Positions 49,397-52,198 of a stretch of DNA of 64,000 nt are shown here, piece after piece. The first letter of the stretch is position 1, and every line of letters begins with the position of its first letter. The position numbers and the translations under genes were made by a program. The notes under the pieces were generated by a model that saw nothing but the letters and a program-made list of their open reading frames with translations, made no database searches and had not been told where the DNA came from. Source of the DNA: Escherichia coli (GTDB lineage Bacteria; Pseudomonadota; Gammaproteobacteria; Enterobacterales; Enterobacteriaceae); the NCBI RefSeq assembly GCF_009931435.1, contig NZ_CP043414.1. The stretch is one strand, 5' to 3'.

Positions 49397-50170
49397 ATGT
49401 CCGAGAATAAATTAAACGTTATCGATTTGCACAAACGCTACGGCGAACACGAAGTGCTGAAAGGGGTCTCACTGCAAGCGAATGCCGGTGATGTCATAAG
49501 TATCATCGGATCGTCGGGATCGGGGAAAAGTACCTTTCTGCGCTGCATTAACTTCCTCGAAAAACCGAGCGAAGGATCGATCGTCGTTAACGGCCAGACG
49601 ATCAATCTGGTGCGCGATAAAGACGGTCAACTCAAAGTCGCCGATAAAAATCAGCTGCGCTTACTGCGCACACGCCTGACGATGGTATTCCAGCACTTCA
49701 ATCTCTGGAGCCATATGACGGTGCTGGAAAACGTCATGGAAGCGCCGATTCAGGTGTTAGGCCTGAGCAAGCAGGAAGCGCGCGAGCGGGCGGTGAAGTA
49801 TCTGGCGAAAGTCGGGATAGACGAACGTGCGCAGGGGAAATACCCGGTGCATCTGTCCGGTGGTCAGCAACAGCGTGTTTCCATCGCGCGGGCGCTGGCG
49901 ATGGAACCGGAAGTTTTACTGTTTGATGAACCTACCTCGGCGCTCGATCCTGAACTGGTAGGCGAAGTGCTGCGTATTATGCAGCAACTGGCAGAAGAGG
50001 GAAAAACCATGGTGGTGGTGACTCACGAAATGGGCTTTGCTCGCCATGTTTCTACTCACGTCATTTTTCTCCATCAGGGGAAAATAGAGGAAGAAGGCGC
50101 GCCGGAGCAGTTATTTGGCAACCCGAAAAGCCCTCGTCTGCAACAGTTCCTTAAGGGATCGCTGAAATAA
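49397..50170 (+). CDS. hisP: Histidine ABC transporter ATP-binding protein
   Basis: 257 aa; Walker [10 protein letters not shown], signature LSGGQQQR, Walker [12 protein letters not shown]. Confidence 0.96.
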
Positions 50171-50366
50171 CTCCCCCTCCGGTGGCTAACGCTGCCGGAG
50201 TATTTTCAAGGGAAATTTGCGAGTCCGTTTCCGCTGAAATGTAAAAGTTGCAGTCCGCTAAAAATACTTCTGAATTCGCTGTCCAAAGATAAAAACTGCC
50301 TGCTGCATTGGGTGTAAATCGTGGTTATTGTCGCGTCATCTTAAATTTGAGGGGTGACGGAACGCC

Positions 50367-51257
50367 ATGACAATATCGACAACTTCCACGCCGCATGATG
50401 CGGTATTTAAATCTTTTTTACGCCATCCAGACACCGCGCGGGATTTTATTGATATTCATCTTCCCGCGTCGCTGCGCAAACTGTGTGATTTAACGACGCT
50501 CAAACTGGAACCAAACAGTTTTATTGATGAAGATCTGCGGCAATATTATTCCGACCTCTTGTGGTCTGTGAAAACGCAGGAGGGAGCGGGTTATATTTAT
50601 GTGGTGATAGAGCACCAAAGTAAGCCGGAGGAATTAATGGCTTTTCGCATGATGCGCTATTCCATCGCGGCGATGCAAAACCATCTGGATGCAGGCTATA
50701 AAGAGCTTCCATTGGTGATCCCAATGCTGTTTTATCATGGTTGCAGAAGTCCTTATCCTTATTCACTCTGCTGGCTTGATGAATTTGCCGAGCCTGCTAT
50801 AGCCCGCAAAATATATTCATCGGCTTTTCCGCTGGTGGATATTACCGTGGTGCCGGATGACGAGATTATGCAACATCGCAAAATGGCGCTGTTGGAGTTA
50901 ATTCAGAAACATATTCGTCAGCGCGATCTGTTGGGATTAGTCGACCAAATTGTTTCGCTGCTAGTTACAGGGAACACTAATGACAGACAGCTAAAAGCCC
51001 TGTTTAATTACGTATTACAAACGGGAGATGCCCAGCGTTTCCGTGCATTTATTGGTGAGATAGCGGAACGAGCACCACAAGAAAAGGAGAAACTGATGAC
51101 CATTGCTGACAGATTACGTGAAGAAGGCGCAATGCAGGGCAAACACGAAGAAGCTCTGCGTATTGCTCAGGAGATGCTGGAAAAAGGATTTGACCACGAA
51201 GTCATCCTGACGCTGACCCGACTTTCACCAGACGACCTAATCGCGCAAAGCCACTAA
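50367..51257 (+). CDS. rpnB: Recombination-promoting nuclease RpnB (YfcI; Rpn/transposase_31 PD-(D/E)XK family)
   Basis: 296 aa; Rpn family-like N-terminus HDAVFKSFL. Confidence 0.85.
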
Positions 51258-51304
51258 TCCTGTAACACCGGGAATTAACTGGCGGATGTTTGCAGTACAC
51301 CACA

Positions 51305-52198
51305 TCAGTGAACAACATCCGCCAGCGCTTCTTCTAAATCGTACCAGCGAAACGCAAAACCCGCTTCTTCCAGCCGTTTAGGCAATGCTCGTTGTCCACC
51401 TAATACCAGTACTGAAGATTCGCCCATTAACAGTCGAATAGCGGTCGCGGGGACGCGCAAAATGGCCGGGCGATGCAGCGCATGACCGAGCGCATGGGCA
51501 AATTGTTCATTGCGTACCGGGTAGGGCGAAACCATATTAAACGGCCCGCGCAGCTCGTTATCCAGCAGCCAGAGAATACCGTTGACCATATCATCGATAT
51601 GAATCCAGGCCAGATACTGCCGACCGGAGCCAATCGGCCCGCCCAGGCCAAGACGAAACGGCGGCAGCATTTTACCGAGGATCCCGCCGTCCGGTGCCAG
51701 CACCACGCCGGTACGCAGCAGGCACACACGTGTTTTGTCGCTTTGCGCCCGACAGGCAATCTCTTCCCAACGAGCGCAGAGTTTGTGGGTAAATTCGTTA
51801 TGCGGCGGTTCCTCTTCGGTAACCACCACTTCACCTAAGTCGCCATAATAGCCCGTTGCCGAACCGGAAATGAGTACCGACGGCGGCGTGTCGCTGGCAT
51901 TAATTACATCGACCAGTTTTTGCGTGATATTCCAGCGGCTTTGGCAGAGACGATCTTTTTGCTCGTGAGTCCAGCGTTTATCGGCAATCGGTTCTCCAGC
52001 CAGGTTGATTACCGCATCAACGCCATTGAGGTTGCTTTGATCTGCAAGCCCTTGCCATAGTGTCACCCGGGGGCCGAGAGCGGAACTGGCTTTCTGCGGG
52101 TTACGTGTCACTACCGTGATTTGATGGCCCAGCTCCAGCAAACGTGGAATCAAATGGCGACCAATTAATCCCGTCCCTCCGGTGATCACTATGTTCAT
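51305..52198 (-). CDS. yfcH: Epimerase-family protein YfcH (NAD-dependent, SDR-like)
   Basis: 297 aa, N-terminal ITGGTGLIG Rossmann motif. Confidence 0.9.

Follow-up and report, generated by a model that had tools for sequence, protein, structure and literature searches.

The closest described relative of the gene studied here is rpnB of Escherichia coli K-12. Overexpression of K-12 RpnB raised RecA-independent recombination 19-fold, lowered colony-forming units by 98.7% in a ΔrecA recipient and led to early SOS induction in a recA+ strain (Kingston et al. 2017; PMC5350276). Mg2+-dependent endonuclease activity was shown in vitro for its K-12 paralog RpnA, in which the residues D11, D63, E82, Q84, R94 and D165 of a PDDE motif were mutated. 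RpnA phenotypes were lost in the D11A, D63A, E82A and Q84K variants, and nuclease activity was lost in D63A (PMC5350276).

Later work established a second, internal product. Ribo-RET showed iTIS peaks, marking internal starts, in all rpn genes (Meydan et al. 2019 preprint, bioRxiv 10.1101/520783). In K-12, dRNA-seq found an internal transcript, shorter and more abundant, for all rpn genes, and both rpnA and rpnB were altered by mutation at the RBS and iTIS of the internal start (Zhong et al. 2023; PMC10400941). SPA-tagged forms of both the short product RpnB_S and the long product RpnB_L were detected in this strain, and a construct making RpnB_L only was more toxic than the wild-type gene (PMC10400941). 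Induction of dinD-lacZ by K-12 RpnB was stopped by RpnB_S and not by RpnA_S, i.e., there was no cross-inhibition of RpnB_L by RpnA_S, and a stop codon in RpnB_S ended the effect (PMC10400941). The RpnS proteins were moreover described as hypervariable in four-amino-acid repeats that start 8–20 residues past the internal Met (PMC10400941). Zhong et al. (PMC10400941) and a commentary by Koonin (PMC10400984) treat Rpn as gene-within-gene toxin–antitoxin systems and not as transposases or transposable elements.

We analyzed the rpnB gene in a window of 64,000 nucleotides, one strand of the E. coli contig NZ_CP043414.1 (RefSeq assembly GCF_009931435.1). With a probability of roughly 90%, we read it as a single-gene, two-product toxin–antitoxin system of the gene-within-gene type, in which RpnB_L would be the nuclease and RpnB_S its blocker. 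The gene resembles K-12 RpnB_L/RpnB_S in its locus, its length of 296 aa, its catalytic residues, a Shine-Dalgarno sequence with an iTIS at M244, and a 53-aa RpnB_S with one GAMQ unit. It differs from it by 12 substitutions, nine of them within aa 272–283 of the S domain, where K-12 has DRGLDRELVMMV. RpnA (YhgA), for which a crystal structure of RpnA_S is available (PDB 7TH0), shares the architecture, the active-site residues and the iTIS at M244; however, it is another paralog at feoC-bioH, and its RpnA_S of 49 aa is one four-residue unit shorter than RpnB_S. The plasmid system RpnP2_LS belongs to the same family and follows the same gene-within-gene logic, as described by Zhong et al. (PMC10400941). 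In contrast to the chromosomal gene, it is carried by a plasmid, and among Rpn systems it alone has been shown to give protection from T-even phages; no such protection is reported for chromosomal RpnB. Other PD-(D/E)XK nucleases, i.e., Shedu SduA, Hachiman HamA, McrC and type IIS restriction enzymes, have no detectable sequence similarity to RpnB; they carry other regulatory domains and no intragenic antitoxin. The features of the locus are collected in Table 1.

Table 1. Features in and around rpnB, in window coordinates
Feature	Position	Strand	Basis and remarks
Terminator-like hairpin of hisP (50177–50200) plus T run	50177..50209	+	Terminator scan; segment kept in rpnB-less strains
Segment missing in rpnB-less E. 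coli, e.g. strain 81009	50277..51278	+	Alignment; covers upstream region, ORF and 21 nt beyond
rpnB (yfcI), full ORF, product RpnB_L	50367..51257	+	Single ORF, ATG start, 296 aa; coordinates include the stop codon
Transposase_31 / YhgA-like domain, aa 8–209	50388..50993	+	Predicted PD-(D/E)XK core and PDDE motif; PF04754 match
Shine-Dalgarno AAGGAG of the internal start	51084..51089	+	6 nt 5' of ATG 51096; read from the sequence
rpnB_S, in-frame gene within the gene, M244 to stop, putative 53-aa antitoxin	51096..51257	+	Sequence; homology; Zhong et al. 2023
Four-residue unit GAMQ (aa 254–257) in the long first helix	51126..51137	+	Site of an extra four-residue unit in other strains
Hypervariable patch, aa 272–283 (K-12: DRGLDRELVMMV)	51180..51215	+	Differences from K-12; helix positions from AlphaFold2 model
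Perfect 12-nt inverted repeat with 23-nt loop between rpnB and yfcH	51279..51325	.	Repeat search; overlaps yfcH 3' end

Gene identity and the nuclease domain

A sequence-only reading of the window had named this open reading frame rpnB (yfcI), and the same frame with the same boundaries was recovered by our analysis. The encoded protein is identical to K-12 RpnB (b2305, formerly YfcI) at 284 of 296 residues (96%), without gaps and at equal length; identity to the K-12 paralogs is 66% for RpnA, 65% for RpnE and 52% for RpnC. Upstream lies hisP (49397–50170), downstream the convergent yfcH (51305–52198, minus strand), followed by folX and yfcG. Because this position between hisP and yfcH is the same as in K-12, we assign the gene from its sequence as rpnB, the ortholog of b2305. 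In the RefSeq annotation of the closest genomes, the same ORF between hisP and yfcH is likewise labeled rpnB. The assignment is based on the 96% identity and on synteny and not on an RpnB-specific HMM, as none is among the NCBIfam matches listed.

Membership in the Transposase_31/PD-(D/E)XK family, also proposed from sequence alone with an HMM search as its check, was borne out when this search was run. The product matched Pfam PF04754 (Transposase_31, YhgA-like) at E 2e-91 and 305.6 bits (cut-off 21), covering profile positions 1–202 of 203, and the Rpn family model NCBIfam TIGR01784 at 191 bits (cut-off 52). Two NCBIfam equivalog models remained below their 583-bit cut-offs, RpnA with 466 bits and PRK09956 (‘ISNCY family transposase’) with 459 bits, as expected for a different paralog.

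Over its whole length, the window shares about 98.6–99% identity with a handful of genomes named ‘E. coli’ and about 95–96% with K-12-like strains, and hisP and yfcH have a dS to K-12 of 0.15–0.17. From these values it follows that the window stems from a somewhat deep-branching Escherichia lineage, by which the conclusion on rpnB is unaffected.

In the N-terminal domain, an alignment showed that D11, D63, E82, Q84, R94 and the PDDE motif (aa 163–166) are all kept in the window protein at the positions they have in RpnA. Among 36 aligned sequences, the residues critical in RpnA (D11, D63, E82, Q84, R94 and D165 of PDDE) are invariant or nearly so. Compared with K-12, dN/dS of the N-domain is 0.05 at a dS of 0.10. 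As this is near the values of the housekeeping neighbors hisP (0.02) and yfcH (0.035), the nuclease part is under purifying selection. With AlphaFold2, the alignment of 36 sequences gave a model with a mean pLDDT of 61, about 72–84 in the core (aa 10–130) and weak values outside of it; a Foldseek search of the PDB with this model of low overall confidence returned zero matches at E ≤ 1e-3.

The internal gene and its variable tail

The internal start has the better ribosome binding arrangement of the two. The primary start ATG 50367 has only a GAGGGG at a distance of about 12 nt, less favourable than the internal Shine-Dalgarno sequence, and the layout of the latter with its ATG is the same in the K-12 and GE3 alleles, as seen by alignment. 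M244 itself is invariant in every K-12 paralog and in 36 homologues. RpnB_S can furthermore be placed at M244 because Zhong et al. (2023) made a stop mutant at ‘D29’ of RpnB_S, a residue that equals D272 of K-12 RpnB under that start only. With regard to transcription, two promoter scans gave no convincing sigma-70 consensus 5' of 51096.

RpnB_S and RpnA_S are 45% identical over their full length, with one four-residue gap. In a PDB sequence search, the RpnB_S region matched RpnA_S (7TH0) at E 2e-3, and no other part of the protein has a counterpart among solved structures. The top of that search was held by designer pentatricopeptide proteins (E down to 2e-16), which we rejected as a repeat-summation artefact: the match sums ten weak repeats on aa 252–285, each with an i-Evalue above 20, and the Pfam PPR model gave the window protein 14 bits against a cut-off of 25. 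For close homologues of the window protein, precomputed annotation lists Pfam PF27070 (HTH_Rpn_C). The window allele keeps all the sequence elements needed, i.e., the ORF, the catalytic residues, the Shine-Dalgarno sequence with the iTIS, and the S domain.

Divergence from K-12 is concentrated in this tail. Nine of the 12 amino acid differences are found in aa 272–283 and the other three in aa 1–243 (Fisher p 1.5e-5); at the nucleotide level, 18 of 37 differences fall in the final 159 nt, 15 of them inside the patch. In the AlphaFold2 model, the patch runs from the end of the long helix of RpnB_S through the turn and over the second helix. Compared with K-12, dN/dS rises to 0.41 in the tail and to 0.78 in the patch. 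However, dS of the patch is also high (0.49), which fits an allele segment imported or separated long ago better than point-wise positive selection. The patch allele of the window occurs in about 910 complete E. coli genomes, among them O157:H7 and strain 536. Strain R32_14_1F, the closest genome in the flanks, has an S allele different from that of the window, and the S region is therefore uncoupled from its background. Divergence of the S region exceeds that of the N region or the flanks by 8–17 percentage points in most genomes compared.

Length varies as well. The GE3 allele has a 12-nt insertion directly after position 51125, 10 residues past M244, which gives the sequence REE-GRND-GLIL-GKREE. 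Alleles of rpnB with 903 bp are found in about 1100 genomes, and both repeat states are present in several Escherichia species. Counted from the internal Met, the tails of the 120 best database homologues are 49, 53, 57, 61, 65, 69, 73, 77 or 81 aa long, i.e., they change in steps of four. The indel position of 10 residues falls inside the published range of 8–20, and the tail variation thus reproduces the RpnS hypervariability reported before. Three classes of S alleles can be told apart, the K-12 type, the window/O157 type with its patch, and a type with four additional residues (GRND-GLIL); they are common to several Escherichia species.

Distribution, loss and the question of mobility

All but one of the 5426 complete E. 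coli genomes have the hisP and yfcH flanks (5425), and 4755 have rpnB, 4742 of these with at least 80% coverage. The gene was always chromosomal (0 on plasmids), with a median of one copy per genome and at most 2 in the 5426 genomes. The order hisJQMP–rpnB–yfcH–folX–yfcG is shared by the window, K-12 and the closest RefSeq genomes, and hisP–rpnB–yfcH–folX is also found in E. whittamii, Escherichia sp. MOD1-EC7003, E1V33 and E. coli E69. In E. albertii, hisP–rpnB is kept and the contig ends just past rpnB. As it holds the same locus in five Escherichia lineages, rpnB predates their split.

About 670 genomes, i.e., roughly 12% of complete E. coli, are without rpnB, and all eight examples sampled share a hisP–yfcH span of 825 bp (with a query of 1801 nt). 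In strain 81009, the segment 50277–51278 is swapped for about 27 nt that match an internal stretch of rpnB (50814–50840) at 24 of 27 positions, and this relic joins the right flank at a CTGG(T/C)GGAT microhomology (50833–50841/51279–51287). Because an internal 27-nt relic of rpnB remains, the empty allele is a derived deletion and not an unoccupied target site or the product of a clean excision. In some other genomes, rpnB is interrupted by ISVsa5 or IS1. Absence from about 12% of E. coli and IS disruption in a few genomes mean that rpnB is dispensable.

Outside the genus, the best Salmonella homologue lies at the feoC-bioH site, which is the rpnA locus, and a Citrobacter freundii homologue lies beside MFS-transporter, cobW and cstA genes. 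Identity of the nearest homologues is 65–70%, with about 66–68% for the best ones of Salmonella and Citrobacter. In a contig pattern scan for RpnB orthologs, which is sensitive to close relatives only, the matches outside Escherichia were one Erwinia homologue (55%) and a ‘Novosphingobium’ contig of 380 bp, the latter probably a contamination. A conserved place next to the his transport operon, as proposed by the sequence-only reading, thus holds within Escherichia, but with loss in about 12% of E. coli and with Salmonella and Citrobacter homologues at other sites.

The terminator-like hairpin behind hisP marks the end of the his transport operon, and rpnB is therefore probably a separate transcription unit. 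On the other side, the inverted repeat between rpnB and yfcH is a possible bidirectional terminator. An Rfam scan of 49900–51700 found no family. The marks of an insertion sequence or of an ISNCY element (inverted repeats, target-site duplication, variable sites) were not seen at rpnB, and a repeat search found no terminal inverted repeats around it. With no such repeats, a median of one copy, no plasmid copies and a fixed locus, rpnB is not a transposon. The window's only other mobile-element-type genes belong to the argW island at tRNA-Arg(CCT), at 1–7 kb, where torI is intact and intS truncated. Calling rpnB the only intact mobile-element-related gene in the core of the window, as had been done, is fair as a description, although the gene itself gives no sign of mobility.

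These data bear on two other readings, both of which we consider contradicted by sequence and distribution. The idea that rpnB is a transposase of the ISNCY type, possibly domesticated, with a role in DNA mobilisation or in RecA-independent recombination for horizontal gene acquisition, draws on the family name Transposase_31, on the 459 bits against PRK09956, on a match to PHROG 3300 (‘transposase’) at E 1e-89, and on the 19-fold recombination increase with overexpressed K-12 RpnB (PMC5350276). Yet the PRK09956 score is under its 583-bit cut-off, neither terminal inverted repeats nor target duplications surround the gene, and a single median copy holds a fixed hisP/yfcH position across Escherichia species, with none on plasmids. 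The basal recombination frequency was unchanged when rpnA–D were deleted (PMC5350276), and the assays with overexpressed protein had co-expressed RpnB_S unknowingly (PMC10400941). Moreover, the fold is not known from any autonomous transposase, and no sign of transposition was seen by Zhong et al. (PMC10400941). We hence regard a transposase as very improbable and ‘Transposase_31’, ‘ISNCY family transposase’ and the PHROG 3300 label ‘transposase’ as historical labels. That Rpn proteins promote RecA-independent recombination, the other part of the earlier reading, agrees with the published effect of K-12 RpnB overexpression, but its term ‘domesticated transposase’ is out of date in view of the arguments for a toxin–antitoxin system (PMC10400941; PMC10400984), and it overlooked the internal RpnB_S, although AAGGAG and ATG 51096 are plain in the sequence.

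Alternatively, rpnB could be left over from an ancient acquisition, decaying and without function but tolerated, and its tail variability a sign of relaxed constraint instead of selection. The deletion in about 670 of 5425 genomes, the disruption by ISVsa5 or IS1 in others, the rpnD pseudogene of K-12 and its rpnE, annotated as inactive, as well as the raised dN/dS of the tail (0.41) and of the patch (0.78), would fit with this. However, 4742 genomes (at least 80% coverage) and five Escherichia lineages carry an intact ORF, the N-domain evolves at a dN/dS of 0.05 with all catalytic residues kept, and the Shine-Dalgarno sequence and iTIS are conserved. Tail changes are in-frame, come in four-residue steps and fall into discrete allele classes across species, which is not random decay, and K-12 expresses both proteins (PMC10400941). 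A mere relic is thus highly unlikely, and we keep to the reading of rpnB as a two-product toxin–antitoxin gene.

Proposed mechanism and possible role

In the proposed mechanism, translation from ATG 50367 would yield the 296-aa RpnB_L, with its N-terminal PD-(D/E)XK domain as a Mg2+-dependent DNA endonuclease of little sequence specificity. Left unchecked, RpnB_L would cause DNA damage, SOS induction and growth inhibition. Translation from ATG 51096 (M244), with its much better Shine-Dalgarno sequence and in K-12 also from an internal transcript, would yield the 53-aa RpnB_S, a predicted three-helix bundle. Its long first helix may bind the identical C-terminal domain of RpnB_L and so block the nuclease. 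Cognate specificity would come from the variable tail, through the count of four-residue units and probably also through the patch at aa 272–283. The recombination gain seen upon overexpression would most likely be a by-product of DNA breakage. For the window allele, nuclease activity and L–S binding are what we infer from its sequence.

If RpnB_S were removed upon phage infection or by another stress, the nuclease could be freed and thereby start a defence of the abortive-infection type. Such a phage-triggered toxin release by chromosomal RpnB is suggested by analogy to the plasmid RpnP2, the only case for which phage protection was shown (PMC10400941). The neighborhood of rpnB is made up of housekeeping genes (his transport, yfcH, folX, purF) and is not a defence island, i.e., by its location the locus does not classify as an anti-phage defence system. 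PADLOC-DB v2 (2023 library, evidently without an Rpn model) had zero matches for RpnB_L and RpnB_S. Neither the neighborhood nor the PADLOC outcome independently speaks for a role of this locus in defence.

We may speculate further that the patch at aa 272–283, as well as the repeat number, sets L–S cognate specificity or the sensitivity to a phage trigger, that the S classes are under balancing or diversifying selection with recombination between lineages, and that chromosomal RpnB is a working, allele-specific abortive-infection system. We put this forward as a tentative proposal that is rather unlikely to hold in full.

The rpnB gene of this window is intact and ordinary, a direct instance of biology that is already known (Kingston et al. 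2017; Meydan et al. 2019 preprint; Zhong et al. 2023), and its analysis leaves the current understanding unchanged. What we add is small and descriptive: the deletion allele with its relic, three classes of S alleles with their frequencies, and the patch at aa 272–283. For annotation, it would be appropriate to label rpnB as a two-product toxin–antitoxin gene and not as a transposase or mobile element, and to annotate the 53-aa internal product too. As at least three S types are intact at this locus, next to a recurrent-looking deletion allele and IS-disrupted alleles, it also forms a handy natural series for studies of L–S specificity.

Deletion of rpnB between hisP and yfcH

Among the 5425 complete E. 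coli genomes that have the flanks, about 670 lack rpnB, the gene for the nuclease toxin RpnB_L. This rpnB-less allele is a deletion. It retains a 27-nt relic of the interior of the gene (24 of 27 positions identical to window 50814-50840). The junction of this relic with the right flank lies in a microhomology of 9 nt, CTGG(T/C)GGAT. In all eight deletion genomes that we sampled, our 1801-nt hisP–yfcH query spans the same length, 825 bp, which suggests that rpnB was lost in a single ancestral event.

Features of the rpnB locus and of the other variable segments (window coordinates)
Feature	Position	Strand	Remark
Segment missing in rpnB-less allele	50277-51278		counterpart, E. coli 81009 locus (L003) 672-732
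RpnB_S class 1			K-12 type
RpnB_S class 2			window/O157:H7 type, with aa 272-283 patch; ~910 genomes
RpnB_S class 3			+4-aa GRND-GLIL type; ~1100 genomes
tRNA-Arg(CCT)	6969-7043	minus	
cscA, kinase and transporter	within 1-7043		sucrose genes, tRNA-Arg island
torI	3379-3579	minus	intact
PACE efflux gene	within 1-7043		tRNA-Arg island
LysR regulator	within 1-7043		tRNA-Arg island
intS integrase	6322-6636	minus	truncated
Unmatched segment	23356-24007		inside last gene of chaperone-usher fimbrial operon, StfH/YfcO-family adhesin
REP/BIME-like tandem array	29516-29966		yfcL-mnmC intergenic region

Allele classes of the antitoxin RpnB_S

RpnB_S, the antitoxin translated from an internal in-frame ATG of rpnB (53 residues in the window), occurs in E. 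coli in at least three discrete allele classes (window 51126-51215). Both repeat states, i.e., the short one with the four-residue GAMQ unit (aa 254-257) and the one longer by four residues, are present in further Escherichia species too, and the S allele differs between the window and the genome that is closest to it by its flanks. The E. albertii rpnB (3001-3900 of its locus, L012) is 903 bp long, as are the E. coli alleles of the +4-aa type; here the four additional codons belong to the N-terminal part (upstream of residue 230) and not to the RpnS repeat site, which is in the short GAMQ state.

Part of RpnB_S (window 51129-51221, RpnB aa 255-285) is similar to the consensus pentatricopeptide repeat (PPR) GKLDEALKLFEEMVEKGIKPDVV, and designer PPR proteins therefore ranked first in a PDB sequence search, via summed weak repeat matches. 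With Pfam PPR, the segment stayed below threshold (14 bits vs 25), and it is probably just a helical-hairpin look-alike. In the assembly of Novosphingobium sp. BW1, a 380-bp contig of low coverage (NZ_VIRF01000009.1; coverage 0.9) codes for the last 98 residues of RpnB (91% identity); this contig almost certainly stems from contamination with Escherichia DNA.

Source lineage and other variable segments

The window is ~98.6-99% identical to a few RefSeq genomes labeled E. coli (R32_14_1F, 2013C-4282, 2020CK-00188 and 2017-02-2CC), vs only ~95-96% for K-12-like strains, and dS between window and K-12 amounts to 0.15-0.17 for hisP and yfcH. The window may hence come from a deep-branching lineage of E. 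coli, or from a cryptic clade.

A variable island (window 1-7043) adjoins tRNA-Arg(CCT), and coverage of window 1-25000 reaches at least 80% in just 30 complete E. coli genomes. The closest genome, R32_14_1F, is otherwise 98.8% identical to the window, but megablast found no match in it for the unmatched segment within the adhesin gene; the adjoining 1 kb shows just 93.8% identity to R32_14_1F. The segment thus looks like a divergent adhesin allele. The REP/BIME-like array consists of 3.9 copies of a 94-nt unit (95% match) and is ~188 nt longer in the window than in R32_14_1F.
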